This document shows positions 7,281 through 64,000 of a stretch of DNA of 64,000 nt, piece by piece; within the stretch, counting starts at the first letter, position 1; each line of letters opens with the position of its first letter. The notes under the pieces are model-generated. The model searched no databases. It had not been told where the DNA came from and worked only from the letters and a program-made list of their open reading frames with translations. A program made the position numbers and the translations under genes. The stretch lies in the NCBI GenBank assembly GCA_964016885.1, contig OZ024742.1, forward strand, positions 131,564,001-131,628,000, given 5' to 3'. This stretch comes from Eledone cirrhosa (lineage: Eukaryota).

Positions 7281-7591
7281 AGTGTATTTTGCAATACACT
7301 TTATGTTTAATTCAAAGCATTTTGAAGACCGTATGCTATTGTTTTAGAGTAGTGACTGACTCACTTACTTTAATCTCAGCAAACAGGGGGAGATAAAGCC
7401 GACAAGGCCTTGTTTCTGCATTTGTTGATGCTTATCAAAGCCAACTACTCCCTCCCGTCTGCTGAGATCACAGATGTTATATTCTTATAGAACTATGCTG
7501 AGATTAAAGTAAATGAGTCTGTCACTACTCTAAAACAATAGCATACGGTCTTCAAATGCTTTTAATTAAGCATAAAGTGTATTGCAAAATA

Positions 7592-7595
<4 letters not shown>
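7281..7595. mobile_element. Inverted-repeat cassette (~100 bp arms) in (TA)n, with a hammerhead-like spacer
   Basis: Arms 7281-7381 and 7496-7595. The minus-strand spacer reads GGCT TTGATAA GCAT CAACAA ATGC A GAA ACAAG GC CTTGT C GGCT. Confidence 0.7.
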
Positions 7596-8544: not shown

Positions 8545-9034
8545 CATCACCACCACCACTAACCATCATCCTCATCATGACAACCACTAACACCGACATG
8601 TATATGCATACTCTCTCATACTACATACATTCATCCACACATACACATATGCATACATACCTTCATACACACACAGAAAAAATGATTAAACAGTGTGGAA
8701 TATTTATAATATTTCAGAGAAAATTGAACAAAAAACACACCACCAGTTGTGAGAACTTTGAGGGCGCATCGGTAATAGGGCAAAATTTCCAATAATAAAT
8801 AGTGAAATAATTGTTTCTACTATTGGCATAAGTCCAGCAATTATCCAGTACATTACTGGTACTTTATTTTATCGACCCCGTAAGGATGAAAGGCACAGTC
8901 AACCTCTTATAATAACATTCTTATAATAACAAATATCGATAAGCAACAAGAAATTATTGGATGAGTAATTATCAAATGAAAGGAAAGTCAAGTTAGAAGA
9001 AAAAATGATTAAACAGTGTGGAATATTTATAATA

Positions 9035-9727
9035 ACAAATAACGAAACGAAATTAAATTTCGTTTCGTTTGTAACTCACTTTTGTATGACTGACGCTTAA
9101 ACAATTAAGTTAAAAGTGTACATCCACATATGTATACTGAAATACTAGTATGCATATAAATACACACACGTATACATATGTACATGTACCGAGCTTTTCA
9201 CTGGACACTTTACTGTGAGTGTTCAGCTAGTCTGTATGTAAACAAACAGACAAAACCGGTTTTTAGAGTCATACTGGTTTTCAAGGAAACACCTTTCCGA
9301 AATTTAATTTCGTTTCGTTATTTGTTTTTATCGTTTCCGCTGAACCGGTACGTACTCACGCTCTCTGCAAATTGGTCTGCCCACTACTAATTTTCATAGA
9401 AAAAGCATATAACGATATGTGCTTTTACGATTCTCAAGAGAGGCCGGAGGATGGGTATTTATTGCTGATGAGATGTAATAACATCGAAACTAGTCCAATA
9501 TTCCTGTCTGGCTCTCTGGAGAATAGAGGAAAGGTGTTTCCTTGAAAACCAGTATGACTCTAAAAACCGGTTTTGTCTGTTTGTTTACATACAGACTAGC
9601 TGAACACTCACAGTAAAGTGTCCAGTGAAAAGCTCGGTACATGTACATATGTATACGTGTGTGTATTTATATGCATACTAGTATTTCAGTATACATATGT
9701 GGATGTACACTTTTAACTTAATTGTTT
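9035..9727. mobile_element. Young non-coding PLE-like insertion: 202 bp inverted arms around a hammerhead, 13 bp TSD
   Basis: Arms 9097-9298 and 9528-9729 appear perfect. TSD AATATTTATAATA at 9022-9034 and 9728-9740; empty site at 8699-8711. Confidence 0.85.
9460..9500 (+). ncRNA. Minimal type I hammerhead ribozyme (intact consensus)
   Basis: TATTG CTGATGA GATGT AATA ACATC GAAAC TA GTC CAATA. Stem I is extended by TTCTC.AGAGAGGCCGGA pairing with TCTGGCTCTCT.GAGAA. Confidence 0.85.
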
Positions 9728-10377
9728 AATATTTATAATATTTCAGAGAAAATTGAACAAAAAACACACCACCAGTTGTGAGAACTTTGAGGGCGCATCG
9801 GTAATAGTGCAATATTTCCAATAATAAATAGTGAAATAATTGTTTCTACTATTGGCATAAGTCCAGCCATTACCCAGTACATTACTGGTACTTTATTTTA
9901 TCGACCCTGTAAGGATGAAAGGCAAAGTTAACCTCGACGAGATTTGAACTCAGACCGTAAACGGACGTAACTATGCAGTACCAGTATCGCACTGGAGTCA
10001 ATTTAATCGGCTTACTCCTCACTTTCAAATTGCTGGCCTTTTGTCAAAATAGAAACAATTATTAATATTTATTGTTATTTTCAGCATTCTTCGTTTATTT
10101 TTTTTATCATCAATAGTATGAGGAGAAATAGAAAGCTAGCATAATCTTAGAAAACGGACATCGTATACAAAAACAACAGTTATGATGGTAATGTTAATTG
10201 GATATATATTAAAACAATAACGTACACATAGACATACACAAGTACTAAAGATAACAGCACACAGACAGACCCACACACAGAACAGACCCACACACAGACA
10301 CACAGATAGACACAGATACACACAGATACACAGATACACACAGACGCTCACACACACATATATTGAAATATATATGT

Positions 10378-13555: not shown

Positions 13556-13754
13556 AGAGAAAATTGAGGTTGGTAATGGCACATGGAATATATAAGAGAC
13601 AGAATACTTTTTTGTGAAAAAACATATAATTTTATAAGGTAAGGAAATAATAAAGGGTATTATTTCCTTACCTTATAAAATTATATGTTTTTTCACAAAA
13701 AAGTATTCTGTCTCTTATATATTCCATGTGCCATTACCAACCTCAATTTTCTCT
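13556..13754. repeat. Perfect palindrome, 97 bp arms with 5 nt loop, in (TA)n
   Basis: 13556-13652 is the reverse complement of 13658-13754. The terminal TTACCAACCTCAATTTTCTCT recurs at ~46244-46265. Confidence 0.9.
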
Positions 13755-14832: not shown

Positions 14833-15180
14833 AGGAAATTACCAGTAAAATCCATTAATGGAAGAGTAGCAATATGTAAAATAGTCCAACAATTCTGCAT
14901 CTAATAACAGCATATACACATGTACAGATACAAAACATATACACATGCACACACACAACTAAAATATACACATCAACACATACAATAACATCTCTACCTG
15001 CACACACATATACATGCGCGCATTCATACAGACATATCTAGTTGATGTTGTGTAAATTCCAATGACAGAGTCATTTACATGACTCTGTCATTGGATTTAC
15101 GTTAGAAACCGACTCTCTCTGGTAAAAAAAACCGACTCTCTATTGGTAAAAATTTGTGAAATTATAAAACTAGAACGAAC
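14833..15180 (+). mobile_element. R4/Dong-like LINE family B, 5'-truncated (ORF end plus 3' UTR), flanked by (CATA)n
   Basis: Reverse complement of 55086-55380; (CATA)n lies on both sides. Confidence 0.8.
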
Positions 15181-15219
15181 ATACATACATATATACATAC
15201 ATACGTACATACATATATA

Positions 15220-15934
15220 CAAGAACCCCCTACCAAATATCTGCTGCACAAAAGGGGAGGGCCAGCAGCTGACAATAAATGTAGGCTATGTAAAACAAAG
15301 ATCGAGGATGTAAGCCACATTGTTGCCAACTGCGAAAGAATGTCATCTCGCTATTACCACCCCATGAGACACGATGGGATAGCTAGAACCATCTGGAACG
15401 CACTTCGGAAAACAAAATTAACAACAAACGAGGAAGAATATATTGAGAGAGATGGCACTAAGGAATACTGGTGGAACCTGAAAATAAAAACTGCCACCAA
15501 ATTAAAGCACAACCGGCCTGATATTGTTGTTTGGGACCACACATTGAAAACGTGTTCTGTTGTGGAGATCAGCTGCCCACTTAATGTAAACGTTGTCAGA
15601 AAAATACAGGAGAAAGAGGACATCTACGGACAATTGATGAGGAGTTTACAAATCCAGTATCCAAGATACACCTTTAGCTTCATACCCATCATTATTGGAG
15701 CTACGGGTTATATACCAACCCGCTTGGACCAAAGTATGATTGAACTTGGATTCGCGGACAAAAAGCGCAGCTCCCTAATTCATAGTCTACAAATGGCTGC
15801 GATAGCTGGCACCTTCAAAATTTGCAAAACATTCTTGCGATTCAAGGGATGACAATTTCTTTTCTTTTACAACTTTGCCACCAGGAAGGTGGCCGGTCAA
15901 AATAATATATTCGAAATTAAGAGAAAGAGATAAC
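15220..15934 (+). mobile_element. R4/Dong-like LINE family A, 5'-truncated (CCHC finger plus restriction-like endonuclease)
   Basis: CRLC..ED.SHIVANC, RHD, HNRPDIVVWD and VEISCP motifs; near-identical to 61565-62280; (CATA)n on both sides. Confidence 0.9.
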
Positions 15935-21432: not shown

Positions 21433-21691
21433 GAGGAAGATGAAAGACCAAGGGAGCACCCCTTCTCTGTGCTCCCGAGGAGAAGGGTTGCACACTTTTT
21501 TCGGGGGTGTGTGCGACCCCCAAGGCGCCTCCTCTCTATTGAGGACTTTGTTATAAATTTTATTTTTTGTTATATTTTATTTTATTTTTATATATTGTTA
21601 TTGCCTCCTCCTTATTGAGGACGCCTTGTTTTGTAAACTCCCCCCATTGTTCTTGTCCCACTTTTGATGCCCTGGTGGCAAATAAAAGAAA
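21432..21691 (+). mobile_element. Tx1-like LINE, 3' UTR-only copy in (TATC)n
   Basis: Close match to 22418-22678; ends AATAAAAGAAA. Confidence 0.85.
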
Positions 21692-21696
21692 CATAT

Positions 21697-22677
21697 CTCT
21701 GGCACACTGAGTGTGCCCAGGCGCTCACCGCCTTCTGGCAGGCGGATCCGGTTATCAGTGGAGACTCCACCGCAACATTCTATAGAGGGCTGGTACGCAG
21801 CAGGTGCGACGACGCCCTCGGAGAAGCCCTAGACATGGAGGAGGACGAACTGGCCAGCCTGTTCGGTAGGACATTCAGCCCAGGACCTATGGACAACTTC
21901 CAGAAGTCCCTGGCCTGGCAGTGCTACCGAGGGGCTTTACCCGTTCGAGAAAGGCTCTACAGACACGGGCGCCCGGGTCGGGACCCCGCCAAAAAGATCT
22001 GTCCCAGATGCGTGTGCGACGAGGAAACCGTTGCACACGCATTGGTACACTGCTCGGGCGTAGCCGATCTGTGGGGCTATGTCGAACAACTGCTGTCAAG
22101 GGTGGGACCGATCCGGTTGACCACCGAGTCTATTGTAATGATCAAGCCGCCTCCCCCCTTCAAAGATGAAGCAGAGGCGGTGTTTCTGTGCGTAATAGCC
22201 ATGGCGAAAGAGGTTGTATGGTGGACGCGTCTGAAAGGACTGAGGTCAGGCACCTTTCTCTCTGGCCAACAACTGGTCCGTTTCTTCCGATATCATTTCG
22301 GAAGAAGGATCAGGATGGAGAGAGAGGTGCTGCACCCCAGTCGTTTTTATGAAAGATGGGTGAAAGTGGCGAGAATGGCCCGTGTGAATGGGCCTTCACT
22401 CTACATCAGACTATAGGTGAGGAAGATGAAAGACCAAGGGAGCACCCCTTCTCTGTGCTCCTGAGGAGAAGGGTTGCACACTTTTTTCGGGGGTGTGTGC
22501 GACCCCCCAAGGCGCCTCCTCTCTATTGAGGATTTTGTTAAAAATTTTATTTTTTGTTATATCTTATTTTATTTTTATATTTTGTTATTGCCTCCTCCTT
22601 ATTGAGGACGCCTTTTTGTGTAAACTCCCCCCTTTGTACTTGTCCCACTTTTGATGCCCTAGTGGCAAATAAAAGAA

Positions 22678-25224: not shown

Positions 25225-25412
25225 GTGGATTGGAAGTATCGATAGAGGGACGGACGCCATGCTTTTCAGCACAGAGTAACGTCCCTTTACGGACTGAGTT
25301 CAAATACCGCCGAGGTTAACTTTGCCTTTCATCCTTACGGGGTTGATAAAATGAAGTACCAGTAATGTACTGGGTATTTGCTGGCCTTGTGCCAAAAGTA
25401 GAAACAATTATA
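25225..25412 (+). mobile_element. tRNA-derived Meta-domain SINE
   Basis: GAGTTCAAAT B box followed by AACTTTGCCTTTCATCCTTACGGGGTTGATAAAATGAAGTACCAG. Confidence 0.8.
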
Positions 25413-26284: not shown

Positions 26285-26668
26285 AAGGCGGTGTATTGGC
26301 AGTATAGGTAGAGCGTCGTACACCCTGCGTCAGCCCTTTATGTTCTGAGTTCAAATCTTGCCGATGTTTGCTTTGATCTTTACGGGGTCCATACAAAAAC
26401 GTGCGGATCACGTATTGGGGTCGACTTAATCGACTTTTTCCTCCCCTACGATTGCTGGCCTTGTGTCTAAATCAGAAATCATCATATTGGCAGTATCGGT
26501 AGAGGGTCGGACGCCATGCTTTCCAGCATAGTTACGTCCCTTTACGATCTGAGTTCAAATCCCGCCGAGGTTAACTTTGCCTTTCATCCTTACGGGGTCG
26601 ATAAAATAAAGTACCAGTAATGCACTGGGTAATTGCTGGCCTTGTGCCTAAAGTAGAAACAATTATCA
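26285..26668 (+). mobile_element. Two tandem Meta-domain SINE copies
   Basis: TGGCAGTAT.GGTAGAG heads at ~26297 and ~26488; B boxes; TTGCTGGCCTTGTG tails. Confidence 0.8.
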
Positions 26669-26795: not shown

Positions 26796-27139
26796 GCCTC
26801 CAGATATTAAGGTTAACTGCGAATAAATAGAATAAGCAGTGCCGGACGGAACACAGGTTGCCCTTTAGTAAGGCATGGTATCCACTAACCTTCTTTACCA
26901 GGGTCACGGTATATCATAGGAGTAATGGCGGTTATTGACAGCTAGATACACCAGCACACACATCAATGGAACATGACAGACAGAGTCGACTACAGTGGCA
27001 TCGTCACTGCGATAACATACAGGAGTTGCTACCTATTGTCATTGAAATAGCAAGCAGATAGACAAGAATGATATATGCCCGAGGAAATTCAGACATGATG
27101 TTGATGATGATGATGATGATGATGAACATAGGAGCAGAT

Positions 27140-27348
27140 GGATTGGCAGTATCGATAGAGCGTCGGGCACCATACTTTGCAGCATAGAGTTACGGCCCTT
27201 TATAATCTTAGTTCAAATCCGGCCGAGGTTAACTTTGCCTTTCATCTTTACGGGGTCGATAAAATAAAGTACCAGTAACGCAATGGAGTCGATTTAATCG
27301 ACTTTCCCCTCCCCCCAAATTGCTGGCCTTGTGCCTATATGAGAAACT
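27140..27348 (+). mobile_element. Meta-domain SINE
   Basis: Same consensus as 26488-26665. Confidence 0.8.
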
Positions 27349-28764: not shown

Positions 28765-29651
<887 letters not shown>

Positions 29652-31003: not shown

Positions 31004-31064
31004 TATTCTATTATATATATTTCAAGGGTACTAAAACTTTGGTACGCTCTCATCAGATAAAATA
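31004..31064 (-). ncRNA. Minimal hammerhead ribozyme candidate
   Basis: TATTTTAT CTGATGA GAGCGTACCAAAGTTTTAGTACCCTT GAA AT ATAT AT A ATAGAATA. Confidence 0.7.
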
Positions 31065-31158
31065 CAAAGTTTGTTTTATAAATATTGACATATCCAGGAA
31101 AAACTTGAACGGTTAAGATCTCCTTCCTGGATATGCCAATATTTATGAAACAACTTTC

Positions 31159-31221
31159 TATTTTATCTGATGAGGGTGTACCAAAGATTTGGTATATCCT
31201 TGAAATATATATAATATCATA
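31159..31221 (+). ncRNA. Minimal hammerhead ribozyme candidate
   Basis: TATTTTAT CTGATGA GGGTGTACCAAA GA TTTGGTATATCCTT GAA AT ATAT AT A ATATCATA; stem I partly eroded. Confidence 0.6.
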
Positions 31222-31455: not shown

Positions 31456-31642
31456 TAGAAGTGGTTACACAACAGTTAGTTCATCATACCGAGTAATTGT
31501 TTCACCTCAGCGGATCCTCAGCTCGTAATGGACATGGTTATACGGAACAGGAAGGAGAACCTTGTCCTTCCTGTTCCGTATAACCCTGTCCAATACGTGC
31601 TGAGGATCTGTAAGGTGAAACAACTAACTGTTGTGTAACCAC

Positions 31643-31650
<8 letters not shown>
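31456..31650. mobile_element. Inverted-repeat cassette in (TA)n with a degenerate hammerhead
   Basis: TAGAAGTGGTTACACAACAGTTAGTT pairs with AACTAACTGTTGTGTAACCACTTCTA. Minus strand: TACGAG CTGAGGA TCCGCTGAGGT GAAACAATTA CTCGGTA. Confidence 0.65.
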
Positions 31651-31961: not shown

Positions 31962-32227
31962 TATAACGAAGGAATTGTGGTAAGGAACCAGATGGACCAT
32001 AACGCACCAGAGTACTCAATACTTAGGGTAGTAGAGTGGGAAATAGGAAAACATATGACACCGACGGCAGAGCTCAAGCCGTTTCGACGGCTATTTCTGG
32101 ACTCTTAGTGGGAAATAGGAAAAAGTATGACCCTGACGGCAGAGCTCAAGCCGTTTCGACGGCTATTTATGTCCAGAAATAGCCGTCGAAACGGCTTGAG
32201 CTCTTCCGTCAGGGTCATACTTTTTCC

Positions 32228-32232
<5 letters not shown>
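31962..32232. mobile_element. 'GAGCTCAAGCCG' family cassette: tandem plus inverted units
   Basis: Two direct units (to 32103; 32106-32168), then an inverted unit (32171-32232); flanked by (TA)n. Confidence 0.75.
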
Positions 32233-32929: not shown

Positions 32930-35690
32930 AACATAGACATATTGTTATACTTTCGGAGGGTCATGCTGTCAACAAAAACACACGCACCTGATGATTTTCA
33001 CTTCAATTTATTATAAATTTCCTGTTGGTTGTTTGGTTCGATAACCGGATGATTGTTTATATATTGTCAAAGCTCTTTTGTCACATACTGTGACCTTGTG
33101 AACGACGGGGTGTATATTTTGTATGTCTCCCCTTTGTTCTGTCCTACACTGAGTTGTGTGTTGTGTGTTTGGTTAGCACATGCGATACATCCAGGTGTGT
33201 GTGCGTTTTTTTTATTTATTCATTTATGTGTTTATTTACTCGCTGGTTGTTTGTCTATCCGTGTGTGTCTGGTTTGTTTTATTAGTTTGATTTTTGAGTG
33301 TGTCTGAATGTCTTCATTTTGTCCTTAATTACAGGTTGTTATGTTGTTATTCCACCCATGTTTTCGGTTTAATTTTGGTTGGAGTTCGTTTTTCTTTGTC
33401 GCTTATGTAATTTGTCTGAGCATTACATATTTTATGTGTGCGCATATAATATATATCTCTATGTTCTCTAATGTGCCTCTATGTTCTATTTTGGCATGTT
33501 GGTGGAGTACTGATGAGTTTTTCCCATCTTGAAGTTCCCACCAGTGTTCACTTATCCCTTCTCCTATGCTACGGGCTGTTTCACCTATGTATGTTGTGTT
33601 CTTATTCCTACACTGTCCCCAAATGCATCTTATGCTATATACTACATGTCTAATTTTGCAGTCAGTTTGCGGGATTAGCTTGCAGACTATGCATTTCTTC
33701 TCAACACAAGTATATGTTTACTAATTAGGGTTTTTATGGGAATGCCTAGTCATTCAACTATCTTTATATTTGATTTTAGCTTGCCTAGAGCCCTTCTAAA
33801 TTTGTAAGCTAGTTTGCCTCTGGGGGTTACACTGACGAACATTACCCTCTGATATTTATTGCTATCATATCATAAGTTGATTTTATTTGTCTTTTTCTTA
33901 ATCCATTCTATTGTATTCCAAAATGTCCTCCTATACATAGAGCAAGGCCTATTTGGTCCTGGTCCCTTTATATACCCTGCACTTGTATCTCTGAGTGTAG
34001 CCAGAGAAGTGCATGCGGTGGATGATGTGTTGTATCTGTCTCTCTAATTCTTAGGGTTTACACATGCAGGACATGTTCCCCATTACTCTTACTAAATCCG
34101 CAATCAGTATGTTGATTTTCATGTTACCCTAAACGTTCTTGGAGGTGATGGGTTTGACATAATGCGAACGGAGGATTTGTGTTCTATTATTAATAGTTTC
34201 TAACCAGGGATCTGTGTTTAGTACAGGTAATCTATGCTTGGGATGTCTAGTTGTGTAGTCTATGGTAACTTTAATACTCTGGTGGATGGAGTTAGCTATT
34301 TGCTAATGCTTTCCATGGTTTTCTTCTCTAATCCCTGACTGTTTTCCCGTGGGGGTGTTTTTACTACGATGTTTGTGTCATCTACGTAGTGGGAGTATAT
34401 AGTCAGGGTTATACAATTGTCGTCTAAGTGTTCTTTAAGTCTTGTGTCCCACTATGCCATAAACAGGTTAGCTATGTCACCTGCAATACTAACGCCAATG
34501 GCTTCCCCTTCTCTTGGGCATATATTTTCCCATTAAACTTGAATATGTTCCTTAAGGGTTAGTTGTATACAGGCTCCCACCGTATGTGTGATAATTTTCT
34601 TTAATGTATCATAGTTTTAGGTGTCTGTATGGTTCTGTCCCACCCACTCCATTTTTCTGTGTGGGTCTTCTTGGCAATTGAGGTAATGGTAGGTGGTCGG
34701 CCTCTCTCTGGCCTTGTGGGACAGAGGCTGCTAAGGTCGTGTGCGTCTAAATAATCCTTATTGTGTGTGAGTTTAAGTAGGTGTCCAACCTCACTGATAA
34801 CAATCCCAGGGAATTCCACATCGCTGATCATATCTACGCATTTTGCCACAGCAAAATCAACGTCAATGGATGGATATAGGGATACTACATCCATGTTACC
34901 TATTGTACAGCCTGTCTGGTCCCTCGGCAGGCTGTATTCGCTGATTCTGTTTAGGAGGTCCTCCGTGCTGTCGCATATGTCTGAGGACATTTCGATTATA
35001 GGGCGTATGATCAGGGAGAGGAAGTAAGAGAGTCTGTAGTTGCTAGCAATGTTAGCTCCACAGACTGGCCGTGCCCGTGATCCCGTGACTGGGTCACTAT
35101 TTGCCTTGTGGTCTTTGTGAAGCCCATACAGCGTTGGTACATCATTGTCTCAGGCCTGAACGTTGTTGGCAGCCCCTTTGCTGTGTTGCATTATGCTAGA
35201 CCACATCATCATGTGAACATTGAGGATTGTTTCCCTTTCTTCATGCTCTTATGGTGTTACTTCTCTTGTGTTGAAGAGGTGACGTTGCATTGCCTGGAAA
35301 TAGCTTGGCAGGCTGTCTACTGACATTCTGCCAGACTTGTCTGTTGGAAATCTTATAATTTCTTCATTTCATGTATGAGTTTACGCAAGCCATTAGGGAC
35401 CCCCCCCCCCAGTTGCTGGGCCTCCATTCTATTCTGTTTCCTGTTATACTAGTCTAGAATAATTTTGATTTTAGTTCTGGGTATTGTGAATTGTGCCTCC
35501 GTTTGGTCATCAGTCAGTGACGGTAGACACGGTCGTTTGTGAACAGAAAGTCTCGTAGGATAAATGCGTCGCATGTAGAAGGACTTATCAGATGGGTTAT
35601 TGAAGTGAAAACCAACAAGTGCTTGCGTGTGTTTTTATTGGCAGCAGAACCCACGCTAAGTATAACAATATCTGTTTCCACACACGTGTT
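32930..35690 (-). mobile_element. Decayed near-full Penelope-like element (RT, Cys-rich linker, C-terminal GIY-YIG) with inverted terminal repeat
   Basis: GNMDVVSLYPSID, GEAIGVSIAGDIANLFM..WD, YSHYVDDTNI, MKINILIADLVRVM, MFVSVTPRGKLA, CKIRHVVYSIRC...YIGETARSIGEGISEH. 32930-33006 is inverted at 35595-35685. Confidence 0.85.
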
Positions 35691-36033: not shown

Positions 36034-36097
36034 CTCATTAACTTTCAATAAATGTTGATAATACATATATGTATATACAAAATCCTTAACATACGTG

Positions 36098-36128
<31 letters not shown>

Positions 36129-36148
36129 TCACGCACATAGACACACAC

Positions 36149-36200
<52 letters not shown>

Positions 36201-36540
36201 GTGTGTGTCTATGTGCGTGAGTGTGTGTGTGTGTGTGTGTGTGCGCGCACGTATGTTAAGGATTTTGTATATACATATATGTATTATCAACATTTATTGA
36301 AAGTTATATATATATATATAGGAAAAGGTATATACTTTTTCCTATTACCCACTCTACTTCCCTAAGTACTGAGTACTCTGGTGCATTTTGGTCCATCTGG
36401 TTCCTTAATACAACTCTCTCTCTCTATATATATATATAAAACAAAGGAGTTGTGTTAAGGAACCAGATGGACCAAAACGCACCAGAGTACTCAGTACTTA
36501 GTGAAGTAGAGTGGGTAATAGGAAAAAGTATATACCTTTT

Positions 36541-36603
<63 letters not shown>

Positions 36604-40569: not shown

Positions 40570-40710
40570 TTCTGGCTTCAAATCACCCCGAGGTCACCTT
40601 TCCACTCCAACATTCTGGGTCGATAAAATGAAGTACTAGTAAAGTAATTGAGCTGATTTAATCAAACTAGTTATTTTCTCAAATGTGCTGGCATCGTATC
40701 TATATTAGTA
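40570..40710 (+). mobile_element. Decayed Meta-domain SINE
   Basis: TTCAAATCACCCCGAGGTCACCTTT...GGGTCGATAAAATGAAGTACTAG...TGCTGGC. Confidence 0.55.
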
Positions 40711-55656: not shown

Positions 55657-57144
55657 AAAGATCATGTCCACAGTGCTACGCCCAGCCCGAAAGCCCGACT
55701 GCGACTCTGGTAGAGCTTCATCAGCAATGTGGAGCAATAGACGGTCCAACAGAATTGTACAGAGAACTTTGCCGACAAATGACAACAGTGATATCCCACG
55801 ATAGTTTCCGCAGTCATCCCTGTCTCCCTTTCCCTTGTATAAAACAACCATCACAGCATCCTTCCAGTCATCGGGAACATGATTGTTGTTCCAGGCATCC
55901 AGAACCAAAGAATGAAGTCAGGAGGTTCAATGCTAAGTCAAAGGTTCACTTGTCACCAATCAGGGATTTGCTTTATGCAGATGACTGTGACCTGGTAGCG
56001 CACACTGAGATTGATATGCAGCATCTCATGGATGCATTTTCTAAAGCGTGTATTGCATTGGGACTTACCATAAACCTGAAAAAGACAGTAGCCATGTACC
56101 AACCAGCTCCTGGGAAGCCATGTTGTGAGCCCAACATCTTGGTTTATGGTGAACGGCTAAGGGTCGTTGGCAGTTTTGTATATCTTGGAAGCACTCTGAG
56201 TATGTCCTGCGATCTTGATGGGGATACAAAAAGCCAGTGGTGCTTTTGGAAAACTGAACAAGCGTCTCTGTTCTCAACGCGGAATTTCGGTAAAGACAAA
56301 GCTCAAAGTGTATCATGCGTATGTGCTCGCGGCACATATTTATGCTTGTGAGACGTGGGTGCTCTACCGTAGACAGATGAAGCGACTTGAGAGGTTCCAC
56401 CAGTACTGCTTACGTCGGATCCTCGGCATAACCTGGCAAATATTTGTCAGTGACGTCGAGGTTCTAGACAGAAGTGGATGTGATAGTGTAGAGTCCTTGA
56501 TTTTGTACCATCAGCTGCGCTGGACAGGCCATCTTGTAAGGATGAATGACAAGCGAATGCCGAAGCAACTGCTTTATGGCGAGCTCCAAATGGGAAAAAG
56601 GAACGCGAGTAAACCCAAGATGCGTTTTAAGGACTGCATCAAGGGGGCGCTCAAGAAAAGTAACGTCCCTTGTGAGCACTGGGAAGCATGCGCTAGCGAC
56701 CGATCGCATTGGAGGAAAGCAGTGGCTAGTGGCAAGAGTCTGTTTGAGGAAACAAGAATAAGGCACGCGACACTAAAATGAGATGACCGGAAAGGAATCC
56801 ATGTTGGCCTTCCCGAAGGCACTGACAGACGGCCTGACCTGACATGTGAGACCTGTAATAGGGTTTGTCTGAGCATGGCAGGTCTAAAGAGTCACCTGAG
56901 AGTGCACAAGAACAGGGAAGCAGGCACCTGTGGAGCTATAAGTGTTCATCAGACGACGACATGTGATGTTTGTGGAAGGGTATGCAGGTCGCGTAGTGAT
57001 CTCACACGACACCTTGGGTCACATGGTACCATGGGTCCAGCACTAGGTGTCAATAATTGTCACAAGTGTAGTGTTTGTACCAGAGTTTTATACCATGGAT
57101 ATAAAGTAGTGGCCGTACTCGAAAACGAGTTGGCAGCCACCACC
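55657..57144 (+). mobile_element. RTE LINE (family 2), 5'-truncated with inverted 5' segment (55657-55917 on -), RT plus C2H2 fingers
   Basis: Minus strand: LHSLVLDAW..NYRGISLLS..PESQSGFR..DMIF. Plus strand: LLYADDCDL, YACETW, QLRWTGHL, CETC..H..H, CDVC..H..H. Ends in a 3' stem-loop then (ATGT)n. Confidence 0.92.
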
Positions 57145-57203
57145 ATGTATGTATGTATGTATGTATGTATGTATGTATGTATGTATGTATGTATGTATGT
57201 ATG

Positions 57204-57755
57204 TCGGGTCGTTGGCGACTAAACTGGCAACCCCACCAAGGTTTCTTGGTGAGGAGGGTGACTTTGGACATCCTGCAGGACTAAAAACAAAACCTGTCAA
57301 AGGGCAAGGGAGCTCTTAAGACTCAATAGCCATCCAAAATCACCGGGAGAGATGACCCCTTAGCCTTTGTCAAGGCAGAATTCTAGGAGAAGGAAAACTC
57401 TGATATAACACCTGCAACCCTGATGGTATCCAATGATGTTGACTTGTTCTTCTTTTTGGTAAATATCATCTTGGTTAAGAGAGTGGGACTGGCTTTGTGC
57501 AGTGCCTTTGCTCACTATAAAAGCTTCACAGCACAGGCATTGCTTTATATCTGGAGATCTCTCTGCACTTGTCATCACATGGTACCATAGGGGCCCCGCA
57601 CTATGTGTCAATAATGGTCACAAGTGTAGTCTTTGTACCAAAGTTTTCAAGTCGCTGGCTGGACTAAAAAGTCACATTCGTTCAGCGCATCGGTAGGGGT
57701 TCTCCTACATGGATATAAAGTAGTGGCCGTACTCGAAAACGAGTTGGCAGCCACC
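57204..57755 (+). mobile_element. Bipartite non-autonomous RTE derivative (5' UTR-like head fused to RTE 3' end)
   Basis: Head GGGTCGTTGGCGACTAA...CTAGGAGAAGGAAAACTCTGA. The 3' half matches 57020-57144 and encodes the CSLC..FKSLAGLKSHIRS finger remnant. (ATGT)n on both sides. Confidence 0.8.
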
Positions 57756-57776
57756 ATGTATGTATGTATGTATATA

Positions 57777-60445
57777 TGGTACGCACAAAAGTGAAACTAA
57801 TCACTAAACGAAAAATCCGGGCTCCTGGTGTTGCCCTGCCCCAAAGATTGAATGCTGCTCGTCTTAAGGATAAAAATGTGAAGAGGACATTGGAAGAAGA
57901 GATGCAGGCTGCAGATCTTGGTGAGGATTGGCCGACCCTTAAAAAGTCGGTTTATGATGTAGGCAGGCGTGTACTGGGATTGGTGCAGAGAAAACATCAG
58001 GGCTGGTTTAATGAGAATGATGTACATATAGAAGACTTGTTGGCTGATAAGAGGAGTGCTCTGTCACGCTACTTGACGGCAAAACCACAGGAGAGGAATA
58101 CGGTGCATGAGGAACTCAGGGATGTAAAATCACGTGTTAGGCGGAGTCTTTCTCAGATGAAGGATCAGTGGTGGAGTGAGAAGGCTGGTGAGATACAAAC
58201 TGCGTCAGATTCCAATAACACAAAGCTGTTGTACAGTCTCTTGCGTGAGGTTTATGGACCGTCTTCTTCTCTGGTGACACCGCTTCGCAGCAAGGATGGC
58301 AAAGAACTTCTTCGTGACTCACAAGGAATTCTACGAAGATGGCGAGAGCACTTTAAAAATCTTCTGAATCAGCCGTCTGTCGTCAGTGAAGATTTCCTCA
58401 ATCTCATTACAGAAAGTCCTGTGAAAGTAGCTCTCGCAGAACCTCCGACGCTTGTGGAGGTTGCAGTGGCTATTTCGAAGCTGAACAGTGGAAGATCTCC
58501 AGGTATGGATGGCATATATACTGAGCTCCTACAATATGGTGGTGAGAGACTCCTGCAACATCTTCACTCTTTGTTTGGCAGGATATGGGCTAATGAATCC
58601 GTACCTGAGGACTGGAGAGATGCAGTAATGGTGGTCTTGTACAAGGGAAAGGGTAACAGGAATGATTGTGGAAACTACAGAGGTATATCATTGCTTTCTG
58701 TCGTAGGGAAAGTTTTATGTAGGGTGCTTCTGAACCGTCTGCTGACACACATTGCAGATTGTGTTCTTCCTGAAAGTCAATCTGGTTTTCGTGTTGGACG
58801 CGGCACTACTGATATGATCTTCTCAGCTAGACAGCTCCAGGAGAAGTGCATGGAACAAGGCTTGGATCTGTATCAGGTTTTTGTCGATCTGACAAAAGCT
58901 TTCGATACTGTTAACAGAGATGCATTATGGAAGGTTCTCCAGAAACATGGTTGCCCTGATAAGTTCCTTGCTTTAGTTAGGTCTTTCCATGACGACATGA
59001 AGGCTTGGGTTAATGTCGGAGGTAACATGTCGGAGCCTATCTCAGTAAAAAATGGAGTGAAACAGGGGGATATTCCAGCACCGACCCTGTTTGCCATATA
59101 CTTTGCAATGGTTTTCTGTATTGCATTCAGGAATTGCGAGCATGGTGTTTACATCCGATATCGAACCTCAGGCAACATATTTAACATCAGGCGCTTTGCT
59201 GCGAAGACAAAAGTATTTACATCAATCATAAGTGACCTCTTGTATGCAGATGATTGCGATCTTCTAGCGCAGACAGATAGTGATATGCAGCACATTTTGA
59301 ATGCATTTTCTGGTGCTTGCAATGCCCTAGGATTGACTGTCAGTCTCAAGAAAACCGTCGTCATGTACCAACCTGCCCCTGGTAAGCAGTACACTGAACC
59401 AAACATCTATGTGTATGGCAAACGACTTGGAGTGGTTGATCAGTTTGTCTACCTGGGAAGCACTGTCAATCGATACAGCAACCTTGACAGTGAAATCTCA
59501 CTTAGGATTAGGAAAGCAAGTGATGCTTTCGGAAAGCTAGAAAGGCGACTCTGGGGTCGACGAGACATATGCAGCAGGACAAAGGTAAAGGTGTACAGGG
59601 CATGTGTGCTCTCTTGTCTTCTTTATGCCTGCGAGACCTGGGTCACGTATCGACACCACCTTAAGCAATTGGAGCGTTTCCATCAGATGTGTCTCAGACG
59701 GATCCATGGCGTTCACTGGAGGGACCACATCAGTGATGTCGAGATTTTGGAAAGCTCTATGTGTGACAGTATAGAAGCTCTTGTGCTGAAGCAACGACTC
59801 CGTTGGAGTGGTCACCTTGCCAGGATGAAGGATTCTAGAATACCAAAACAACTCTTTTATGGAGAGTTGGTTAAAGAAAAACGACCGCCACATAAACCAA
59901 ACAAGAGGTATAAGGATTCCTTGAAAGCCTCTCTGAAAGACGCTAACATCTCTGCTGATACATGGGAAAATATTGCTGCTGATCGTAATAAATGGAGAAA
60001 GACTGTATATGAGGGAAAAGTTGCCTTTGAGGCATCACGAATCGCATACGAGAAAGTAAAGCGGGATGTGAGGAAGGGCATTGCTTTTGCACTTCCAGAC
60101 GGCGAGGGTCCTCCTATGGTGATGACATGCAGCGTCTGTGCGAGACTCTGCCTAAGCGAAGCTGGACTCGAAAGTCATCTTCGCAGTCATAAAGTAAGAC
60201 CAGTGGTTGACTACCAGGCTGCTGTTGGAGATGCTACTCATCATGCTTGCCAAACATGTGGTAGAGAATGTATATCAGCAGGAGGGCTCAAGCGACATAC
60301 AACAGTACACGAACTCCAACCACAGCCGACTATTCCCAGTGAATGTTTTGGTTGTCGACTCTGTGCAAGACATTTTAGATCCTTTTAGATCATTTTAGAT
60401 CATTCGCTGGGCTAAAAAGCCACATTCGATCGCAGCGCTGTTAGT
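57777..60445 (+). mobile_element. RTE (BovB-like) LINE family 1, 5'-truncated, open RT ORF with three C-terminal C2H2 fingers
   Basis: 874 aa ORF with SPGMDGI, NYRGISLLS, FVDLTKAFDTV, GVKQGD, LLYADD and LRWSGH. The APE domain is missing; a 10 bp triplication (C.TTTTAGAT) frameshifts the last finger. Confidence 0.95.
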
Positions 60446-61564: not shown

Positions 61565-64000
61565 GTTTTCTCTTTCTCTTAATTTCGAGTATATTTTTTT
61601 GACCGGCCACCTTCCTGGTGGCAAGGTTGTAAAAGAAAAGAAATTGTCATCCCTTGAATCGCAAGAATGTTTTGCATATTTTGAAGGTGCCAGCTATCGC
61701 AGCCATTTGTAGACTATGAATTAGGGAGCTGCGCTTTTTGTCCGCAAATCCAAGTTCGGTCATACTTTGGTCCAAGCGGGTTGGTATATAACCCGTAGCA
61801 CCAATAATGATGGGTATGAAGCTAAAGGTGTATCTTGAATACTGGATTTGTAAGCTCCTCATCAATGGTCCGTAGATGTCCTCCTTCTCCTGTATTTTTC
61901 TGACAACGTTTACATCAAGTGGGCAGCTGATCTCCACAACAGAACACGTTTTCAATGTGTGGTCCCAAACTACAATATCAGGCCGGTTGTGCTTTAATTT
62001 GGTGGCAGTTTTTATTTTCAGGTTCCACCAGTATTCCTTAGTGCCATCTGTCTCAATATATTCTTCCTCGTTTGTTGTTAATTTTGTTTTCCGAAGTGCG
62101 TTCCAGATAGTTCTAGCTATCCCATCGTGTCTCATGGGGAGGTAGTAGCGAGATGACATTCTTTCGCAGCTGGCAACGATGTGGCTTACATCCTCGATCT
62201 TTGTTTTACATAGCCTACATTTATTGTCAGCTGCTGGCCCTCCTCTTTTGTGCAGCAGATATTTGGTAGGGAGTTCTTGTTCCTGTATTGCATAGAGATA
62301 TCCCTCAAGGTGTGATGTCATAAACTTGTCGGAACTCCATGCCAGGCTTTTTGAGTGGTTTATCCCCTCTATGGTCTGTGTTTTACGCCTCAAGTATCCA
62401 TGCACAACTTTCTCTGTAAATTGGTCAATTTTTTTTCTTGTTTGAACATTGAATAGGATCTTCCGATTTCTCTGGGTGAGAGATTTATATCAGGCTTTAT
62501 TCCATATCTCTCCTCCAGATCAGTCGCTATTCTAATGATATTTCTTTTTTCATGCTCATAAACCTGAGCAAGATGGTCGCCAACCTTTTTCCTCTGTTGA
62601 AGGTGTTGCTTCAGTGTTACTATCCGGGTCTCATATGTTGTTAATATTGATTTTAGACCCCGGCCACCTTCCTTGCGTGAGAAGTATAGCCTATCCACAT
62701 CACCATTGATGTTAAAGTTCCCAGTAACACTGAGAAGTTTACGAGTTCTAACATCCATCTCACTTAGTTCTTGCAATGACCAGTTCAGTAGGCCAAATGT
62801 TGGCGTTAGAATTGGCACAGCATAGGTATTGTGGGCAATGTATTTGTTGTATGCTGACAGTTCTGATGATCATATTTTTTTTTACTCTTCTGAGGTATTC
62901 AGTTCTGGTTCTCTCCTTATTTATGGGTCCATCATATCTGACATTCTCATCCTGTCCAAGATATCTGTAGTTGTCACCTGACTGCAGAGGTTGTATTGTC
63001 AGGCCGTTCATATCTAGATTTCTAGAGGAGGGCACAGCTCTTCCACGTTTTACTGCCAAATATGCACACTTGGACTCACTAAATTTCATTTTGATGTCGG
63101 TTGAAAATTGTGTAATGAGGTCCAATTGTTTCTTGATGTCATTGATATTTGGCCCATACAACTTCAGGTCATCAACAAAGAAAAGATGGGAGATACTTCT
63201 GGGCCCACTTCTTTGTCCACCTTGTTTCCTGAGTAGGTAAGATAGTGGATTCAGTGAGAGAACGAAGAGTAGTACTGACAAGCTATCACCCTGAAAGATG
63301 CCCTTCTGGTAATGTATCCTATCAGTCTTAACCTGCTCCTTCTCACCTCTAAGGATCAAATTGGTGTACCAGTTCTTGGTCAGGCGTTCAACAGCAGCTA
63401 CTAATGGTTGTGGGACTTTAGCTAACTGTAAAGCCTTAATAATCCACCCATGAGGTACACTATCAAATGCTTTTTGATAGTCCAGCCACACGACAGTCAT
63501 GTTTCTGCGATTCTTTGTTGTTTTTTCCTGAATCATTTTGTTAGTTAGTAGGTGATCTATGCAACCCCACACCTCCCTCTTTCCACCAGCTTGCTCAGGT
63601 GTTATGATGTTGTTGGTAGCACAGTGATCCTGTAAGAACAGGTTAAGGCACCCAGTATATAATTTATGCATGATGTTTTGGCAGGCAATTGGGCGGTAAT
63701 TTTTAGCAAGGGTGGTTTGGCTATTTTGGGGAATGAGGAGAGTAGTGGCAGTTGATAACCATCTGGGCAGTTCTTGTGTGCCCTTAATGGTTTCTGTAAA
63801 CAGCCGTATGAGATCTTGCCGATAGAAAGTGAAATTCTTCAACCAGTATCCTGTAATGAGGTCTGGGCCTGGCGATTTCCTATTCGACATTTTCTGTAGA
63901 GCTGTTTCCAGTATTGACCCATCTATGTCATATTGTTTTGTCTGGACATGTTGGCAGTAGTCCTGTTCCAGTTGTTTTAGCCAATTAGCTTGTCTGTTGA
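61565..64000 (-). mobile_element. R4/Dong-like LINE family A (RT, CCHC, restriction-like endonuclease), two frameshifts, runs off the window
   Basis: KSPGPDLI, NYRPIAC, WLDYQKAFDSVPH, GIFQGDSLS, HLFFVDDLKLY, YRYLG, RKEGGRGL, CRLC, RPDIVVWD; 3' end GAGAAAAC followed by (ATAC)n. Confidence 0.93.

Follow-up and report, generated by a model that had tools for sequence, protein, structure and literature searches.

The insertion between positions 9022 and 9740 of a 64-kb stretch of the Eledone cirrhosa genome (contig OZ024742.1, positions 131,564,001 to 131,628,000; this whole stretch of microsatellite-rich animal DNA is hereafter called the window) raises the question of which kind of mobile element leaves behind inverted copies of itself, a hammerhead ribozyme and a duplicated target site, next to an uninterrupted version of the same site. 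An initial annotation had proposed a young, non-autonomous Penelope-like element (PLE) or retrozyme-like family with a minimal hammerhead of the PLE kind, and its coordinates all held on recomputation. At this one locus, a non-autonomous element that is PLE-mobilised or retrozyme-like is supported, whereas the PLE-type minimal ribozyme is not. The insertion appears to work like a PLE insertion, while the element itself is probably a non-LTR retrozyme; we favor, with some confidence, a non-autonomous, non-coding retrozyme with a unit of approximately 466 nt that was inserted by the reverse transcriptase (RT)/GIY-YIG protein of a PLE acting in trans. The basis for this reading consists of two head-to-head copies whose 3′ ends lie at the target ends, a target duplication, a 28-nt overlap, one canonical hammerhead, and the lack of an open reading frame (ORF).

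The two arms of the insertion, 9097–9298 on the minus strand and 9528–9729 on the plus strand, are exact reverse complements (202 of 202 positions, as the initial annotation had it) and enclose a spacer of 229 nt; the orientation of the hammerhead sets the plus strand as the sense strand of the element. A non-coding right copy of 430–432 nt of the unit starts at 9298 and ends at 9729 with the right arm, which represents the 3′ part of the unit. A 1-nt microhomology at 9298 marks the head-to-head junction of this copy with a 5′-truncated, inverted left copy. Followed along the minus strand, starting at 9298 and ending at 9035, this left part consists of a copy of 9528–9729, then of 34 nt (9063–9096) that are found in the left copy and have no other occurrence, and finally, at 9035–9062 (minus strand), of a copy of 9298–9325, the 28 nt with which the right copy begins. 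The last segment had previously been noted as an extra short inversion, 9035–9060 against 9300–9325; the match is real and extends without mismatch to 28–29 nt (9034/9035–9062 against 9298–9325/9326), while its description as an inversion gives way to that of a permuted overlap. Since the end of the right copy leads via the 34 nt back to its own start, the overlap is better read as the joint of a permuted, tandem or circular unit, which the 34-nt segment would close at 466 nt, with a GC content of 36.9%. Overlaps of this permuted kind did not exceed 14 nt in any of 3000 shuffles. A 29-nt palindrome (9041–9069) spans the putative joint and forms a 13-bp hairpin with a 3-nt loop (−13.2 kcal/mol); both the palindrome and the 34-nt segment are missing from the initial annotation. 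Where the overlap ends, the right copy continues with 6 nt of which five agree with the target end, a level of agreement seen at only 2 of 396 offsets. The 3′ ends of both copies face the two target ends, and the corresponding cDNA starts (9035 on the left, 9727–9729 on the right) are located 62–64 nt apart on the unit; the interval between them, of which the 34-nt segment is a part, resembles a one-sided “tail.” As a caveat, the proposed tandem unit rests on a single 28-nt overlap in one copy with one hammerhead.

The 13-mer at the target site occurs on both sides of the insertion (9022–9034 and 9728–9740, plus strand) and once more at 8699–8711, and is absent elsewhere in the 64 kb on both strands. 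The 13-bp target site duplication (TSD) of the initial annotation thus stands as a sequence, but not necessarily in its length; the duplication measures 10–13 bp, because positions 9728–9729 belong to the arm and position 9034 also matches the unit, and it may be 11 bp (9024–9034 and 9730–9740) rather than 13 bp. The empty target site (8699–8713) contains two AATATT hexamers, at 8699–8704 and 8708–8713; with an 11-bp duplication, both ends of the insertion fall at AATA/TT (the slash marking the nick) on opposite strands. By rough, post hoc estimates, the chance of finding both ends in this register is 8e-6 to 1e-4, and that of finding the second end in register given the first is 0.003–0.013.

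The uninterrupted site belongs to a short local duplication; its copy A (8675–8906, plus strand) matches 8998–9034 at 37 of 37 and 9728–9935 at 201 of 208 positions and breaks off inside a SINE-like repeat, into which the remainder of copy B (9741–9976, plus strand) continues. This dispersed repeat recurs at 8807–8906, 9836–9976, 25226–25411, 26486–26666, 27139–27286, and 40571–40663, in copies that are 77–92% alike. Copies A and B are separated by 91 nt of filler (8907–8997, plus strand), within which 8921–8935 repeats the 15-mer that spans the left junction of the insertion (9027–9041); only 3 of 5000 shuffles shared at least 15 nt with the neighborhood. Since the filler repeats the left junction, it is probable that the joint between A and B was altered at the time of the insertion or later, or else that A represents an allele. 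The uninterrupted paralogous site named in the initial annotation is thus not a simple bystander; the empty copy A could be allelic or derived from repair. The filler also has short words in common with its neighborhood, including a 9-mer from the helix II loop of the hammerhead, and has the patchwork look of templated insertions; only the 15-mer is clearly beyond chance. The possibility that the filler descends from A or B by decay was considered and found marginal; its likeness to copy A was equaled in 16 of 500 shuffles with cheap gaps and in 103 of 500 under stricter settings.

The hammerhead (9451–9508, plus strand) has CUGAUGA at 9465–9471, helix II at 9472–9485, GAAA at 9486–9489, the palindrome ACUAGU at 9489–9494, and helix I at 9460–9464/9496–9500; it is enclosed by a long stem (9430–9524, plus strand) with a predicted fold of −33.2 kcal/mol (z −2.9). 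The predicted cut after C9495, the C17 position, agrees with the cleavage site that had been proposed. Among shuffled sequences, none of 5000 for the element and none of 200 for the window contained an equally good motif, defined by helices I and II of at least 5 pairs and a short helix III. The score of the element against Rfam model HH9, 31.6 bits with an E of 1.2e-5, fell short of the gathering score (52), and Rfam searches at gathering thresholds gave no match across the 64-kb window; matches to miRNA families, likewise below gathering, were dismissed as reflecting a purine-pyrimidine-rich hairpin.

Hammerheads of PLEs have been described as minimal motifs, with an extra base between A9 and G10.1, a long helix II and a poorly defined loop 1, while canonical animal motifs have a helix I of 6 bp, a helix II of 4 bp, a short palindromic helix III, and contacts between loops (PMC4209133). 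In the Eledone motif, G9472 directly follows A9471 and pairs with C9485, without an extra nucleotide between A9 and G10.1; by our own count, this extra base is present in 54 of the 56 minimal motifs of Figure S3 in PMC4209133, and one of the two motifs lacking it is PLE-linked according to the same supplement. Helix II has 4–5 bp, helix I has five Watson-Crick pairs, not six, and there is a CUAG loop; internal loop 1 with its closing stem aligns to Rfam HH9, an alignment that was the sole source for assessing tertiary contacts. Canonical motifs are the mark of non-LTR retrozymes (PMC7229834; PMC7761336), and a palindromic helix III has been reported in repeat-type motifs (PMC3088659). The intact core and the longer stem of the initial annotation are thus upheld, but not the term “minimal”: by its predicted architecture, the hammerhead is of the canonical animal type I form that is typical of non-LTR retrozymes, and not of the “minimal” PLE form. 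Its palindromic helix III favors a dimer; in a nearest-neighbor model, which is the only basis for these energies, reaching the active fold costs 8.4 kcal/mol relative to the minimum in the monomer and 3.4 kcal/mol in the swapped dimer, consistent with the earlier expectation of cleavage as a dimer. Among retrozyme dimers predicted in Xenopus, eight of nine did not cleave in vitro (bioRxiv 10.64898/2026.07.22.740005).

Folded as a circle, the 466-nt unit reached a z of −7.7 (0 of 100 shuffles), compared to −5.0 for the linear body without the joint and to values from +0.9 to −5.8 for 14 control stretches out of 59 candidates, one of which reached −5.8. Since the circular fold is nearly matched by the linear body and by this control, its z score was discarded as proof of a circle; the predicted folding would indicate a structured RNA, not circularity. 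Pairing across the putative joint was at chance level, with as many cross pairs in 735 of 1000 shuffles and rank 42 among 118 offsets. Helix I rarely forms in the circular ensemble, where its pairing amounts to only 0.14–0.20.

No coding capacity was detected in the element, in line with the initial annotation. Its six frames lacked similarity to 27 PLE proteins (best E 1.1), and the longest open frame (81 residues) had no match in two protein library searches, one of them limited to lengths of 44–142; an RT or GIY-YIG ORF, as expected of an autonomous PLE, was not found in the element, and neither were direct terminal repeats as part of an LTR/PBS/PPT layout. By blastn and nhmmer, the 64-kb window contained no second copy of the element beyond self and low-complexity matches, so that the recently active family of the initial annotation is represented by a single locus; the 31-nt core had no match in a prokaryotic genome collection, and the window contained no tRNA genes. 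A partner pseudo-LTR (pLTR) was sought among nine candidate stretches of the window, without similarity to the element (best z 2.6).

The window does harbor a broken, endonuclease-bearing PLE at 33346–35604 (minus strand), with RT and GIY-YIG domains in several frames and 48–61% identity, depending on the piece, to an Octopus vulgaris protein; related segments in inverted orientation are located at 32939–33007 and 35599–35671. The three best of 27 matches of a PLE RT fragment in the window are O. vulgaris proteins with 65–66% identity, followed by the next match at 52%; a second protein search gave 46 matches, none of which carried the name Octopus. Relatives of the broken PLE carry a cysteine-rich linker between RT and GIY-YIG, and judging from this linker it appears to be Neptune-like. 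This PLE was ruled out as the partner, as it lacks DNA similarity to the insertion; the partner would accordingly be located elsewhere.

The window holds further inverted structures. A second inverted insertion at 28969–29651 has arms of 154 nt that are 95% alike, and is a relative (z 14.8) of the repeat that adjoins the PLE at 35.6 kb; its spacer contains a hammerhead-like core at 29411, which has the extra base and the longer helix II (6 bp) of minimal motifs but lacks a matching helix I. At 31029–31194, two hammerhead-like motifs (31056 on the minus strand and 31167 on the plus strand) form an inverted pair that is 83% alike; they belong to another family, and their helix III contains an AT palindrome. 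Further palindromes or inverted repeats, 73–97% alike and mostly bordered by TA microsatellites, are located at 7282–7594, 13556–13754, 31456–31647, 32042–32231, 36039–36306, and 36321–36542; hammerhead descriptors gave no match in these six. The window also contains an open frame of 889 codons at 57719–60388 (plus strand) with an RVT_1 domain and C-terminal zinc fingers, which we take to be RTE-like, together with a more decayed relative at 55659–57222. Another LINE, with a zf-RVT domain, is represented by two 3′ parts (61570–62869, minus strand, and 15160–15929, plus strand) that are 97% identical over 708 nt, and a LINE fragment with a zf-RVT domain (21637–22416, plus strand) lies between direct repeats at 21433–21545 and 22419–22532 (98%).

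For the favored retrozyme reading, the following course of events can be proposed. A tandem source elsewhere in the genome would be transcribed, cut by paired hammerheads and possibly circularised, a step taken from the literature. A PLE protein would then nick both strands at AATA/TT, 11 nt apart, and each resulting 3′ end would prime a cDNA at one of two internal starts, 62–64 nt apart. The right cDNA, 430–432 nt long, would cross the ribozyme cut site unbroken and halt within the 13-bp hairpin; the left cDNA, with a total length of 264 nt, would halt at the foot of the hammerhead stem, at the equivalent of position 9528 and 4 nt short of its base; and the two cDNA ends would join on the 1 nt of microhomology. 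Since the right cDNA crosses the cut site, a cleaved linear monomer could not have been its template, which would leave a circle or a multimer that had escaped cleavage; the 202 nt shared by both cDNAs would require two RNA molecules or strand displacement. The resulting copy is probably a dead end; with its single hammerhead, no unit could be released from it in cis, and read-through transcription would form a 202-bp duplex.

The most serious competitor, unlikely but deserving weight, is the 5′-truncated pLTR of a longer PLE, autonomous or not, which dispenses with a short circular unit: the right cDNA would stop near 9326, jump to the second start, copy 28 nt and then join the left cDNA. Most PLE insertions are 5′-truncated and, as a rule, come with partial tandems and inverted copies (PMC8557442; bioRxiv 10.64898/2026.07.22.740005); a short palindromic helix III is likewise found in some hammerheads linked to PLEs (PMC4209133), the test for pairing across the joint was negative, and the 15-mer in the filler might be a sign that the native RNA goes on with target-like sequence instead of the sequence from 9326 onwards. 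Yet for such a jump, microhomology would have to occur a second time, independently, at the same start site, for which few offsets qualify, as described above; the hammerhead is canonical and not minimal; and the element bears no trace of an ORF that ends before the ribozyme or begins after it, whereas the ORF of Poseidon starts at stem II (PMC11167929). If this explanation were true, the locus would represent an ordinary truncated PLE insertion in a PLE-rich genome. The perfect arms could also be a product of the assembly, either as a fold-back chimera or as two alleles placed in tandem with noisy filler, and PLE inverted structures are known to trouble assemblies (PMC8557442). A fold-back, however, cannot generate 34 unique nucleotides and a permuted overlap, and the flanks resume collinearly with a duplicated target; this very improbable explanation suits copy A and the filler, with its weak likeness to the neighboring sequence, better than it suits the element.

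Break repair by fold-back synthesis, which might have turned an older solo copy into a palindrome and produced the local duplication and the filler in the same event, would account for the filler’s repeat of the left junction and for the truncation of copy A, in a window with seven other inverted structures. The 34 nt that occur in the left copy and are missing from the right indicate that the left copy was not copied from the right one, and the clean target duplication and the shared AATA/TT register of both ends speak against repair; this origin is considered quite improbable. Long, perfect inverted repeats and a duplication of approximately 10 bp, within the range of Mutator and foldback elements, would suit a non-autonomous DNA transposon (a foldback element or Mutator-like MITE) with 202-bp terminal inverted repeats and a chance hammerhead. 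In this insertion, though, the repeats are not terminal, as the left arm begins 62 nt inside the element counted from the left TSD, and the permuted overlap and the ribozyme are left unexplained, which makes a DNA transposon scarcely credible.

With regard to the age of the favored retrozyme insertion, the arms differ at 0 of 202 positions, with an upper 95% bound of 1.5% on their divergence, compared to 7 of 232 positions between the flanking copies A and B (Fisher p 0.016); the seven other inverted structures selected in the window are 73–97% alike. Polarised by means of the SINE-like repeat copies, three of five differences between A and B that could be polarised represent changes in A and two represent changes in B. 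By the rate implied in PMC13282606 (0.09 per 25 My), the insertion would be younger than approximately 2 My, unless the arms were evened by conversion or assembly polishing; at this locus, the data support the young age assigned by the initial annotation.

Individually, the parts of this locus are all already known. The animal non-LTR retrozymes of coral, mussel, and axolotl (PMC7229834) and of Xenopus and other vertebrates (bioRxiv 10.64898/2026.07.22.740005) are likewise described as non-coding, a few hundred nucleotides long and below 45–50% GC, with a canonical type I hammerhead, a weak palindromic helix III, a TSD of more than 4 bp, strongly self-paired RNA, and PLEs in the same genome. 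In contrast to their tandem arrays, the Eledone element is a single inverted pair of less than unit length each; its proposed 466-nt unit slightly exceeds the range of 150–450 nt given in PMC7229834 and falls inside that of 51–972 nt given in bioRxiv 10.64898/2026.07.22.740005. Drosophila willistoni HHR2 repeats, a hammerhead family tied to PLEs and to tandem repeats of approximately 450 bp, are likened to this element by their description only (PMC4209133, supplement, Figure S5).

Endonuclease PLEs, such as Poseidon of Anolis (PMC11167929) and Adineta Penelope elements (PMC3846280), and the general PLE scheme (PMC8557442) share with this insertion an inverted 5′-truncated copy, a partial tandem, a one-sided tail, an AT-rich target, priming of both strands, an internal start near a hairpin, a palindrome at the repeat boundary, and a hammerhead within the repeat. 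The standard PLE layout combines the inverted 5′-truncated copy and the partial tandem with a one-sided tail of 30–40 bp (PMC8557442), and Adineta PLEs are reported with inverted pLTRs, TSDs of 8–10 bp and 5′ palindromes (PMC3846280). The Eledone element differs by its canonical hammerhead, by the absence of an RT or GIY-YIG ORF, by a tail of 62–64 nt instead of 30–40 nt, and by starts that are located 232 and 296 nt past the cut site. Purified Poseidon protein cuts and extends both strands and prefers ATT on each of them; its reverse transcription begins internally, at two sites and without homology, and RNA that is unprocessed and uncleaved is used (PMC11167929). At the level of this ATT preference, nicking at AATA/TT would fit a Penelope enzyme by which both strands are nicked and primed in this manner. 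Non-coding elements that parasitise PLEs are found in Chlamys, for example MRC1, where they form pLTRs and head-to-tail insertions; these occur in green algae and involve a PLE clade without canonical hammerheads (PMC8557442).

PLEs have been called “a strong candidate” for the integration of animal retrozymes (PMC7229834), and the co-occurrence of retrozymes and PLEs in vertebrates, with similarity to pLTRs, has been used to argue for a PLE origin, leaving the mechanism to be elucidated (bioRxiv 10.64898/2026.07.22.740005). In O. vulgaris, 31 recently active PLE families have been annotated, in a main text that does not mention ribozymes (PMC13282606). The literature searched, which mostly excluded subscription papers and several supplements, contained neither a cephalopod retrozyme nor a retrozyme insertion with a footprint of this kind.

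The Eledone locus links an RNA of the retrozyme type to an integration footprint of the PLE type and to an empty site, and yields exact predictions for the unit length, the two start sites and the nick register. The locus further suggests that PLE insertions owe their inverted copy to priming at both target ends, as observed in vitro. A more far-reaching interpretation can be offered tentatively, as a possibility that falls short of being likely: the locus would be the first cephalopod retrozyme and a very recent, possibly polymorphic insertion that records a PLE protein acting in trans on a circular RNA, with symmetric AATA/TT nicks, two fixed starts, and cDNA running across the cut site and the unit joint, while the empty copy would correspond to the other allele, brought in as a copy when the fragile palindrome was repaired. 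If true, the locus would provide direct genomic evidence for the proposed partnership of retrozymes and PLEs, and the inverted ends of PLEs would be explained as two-ended priming.
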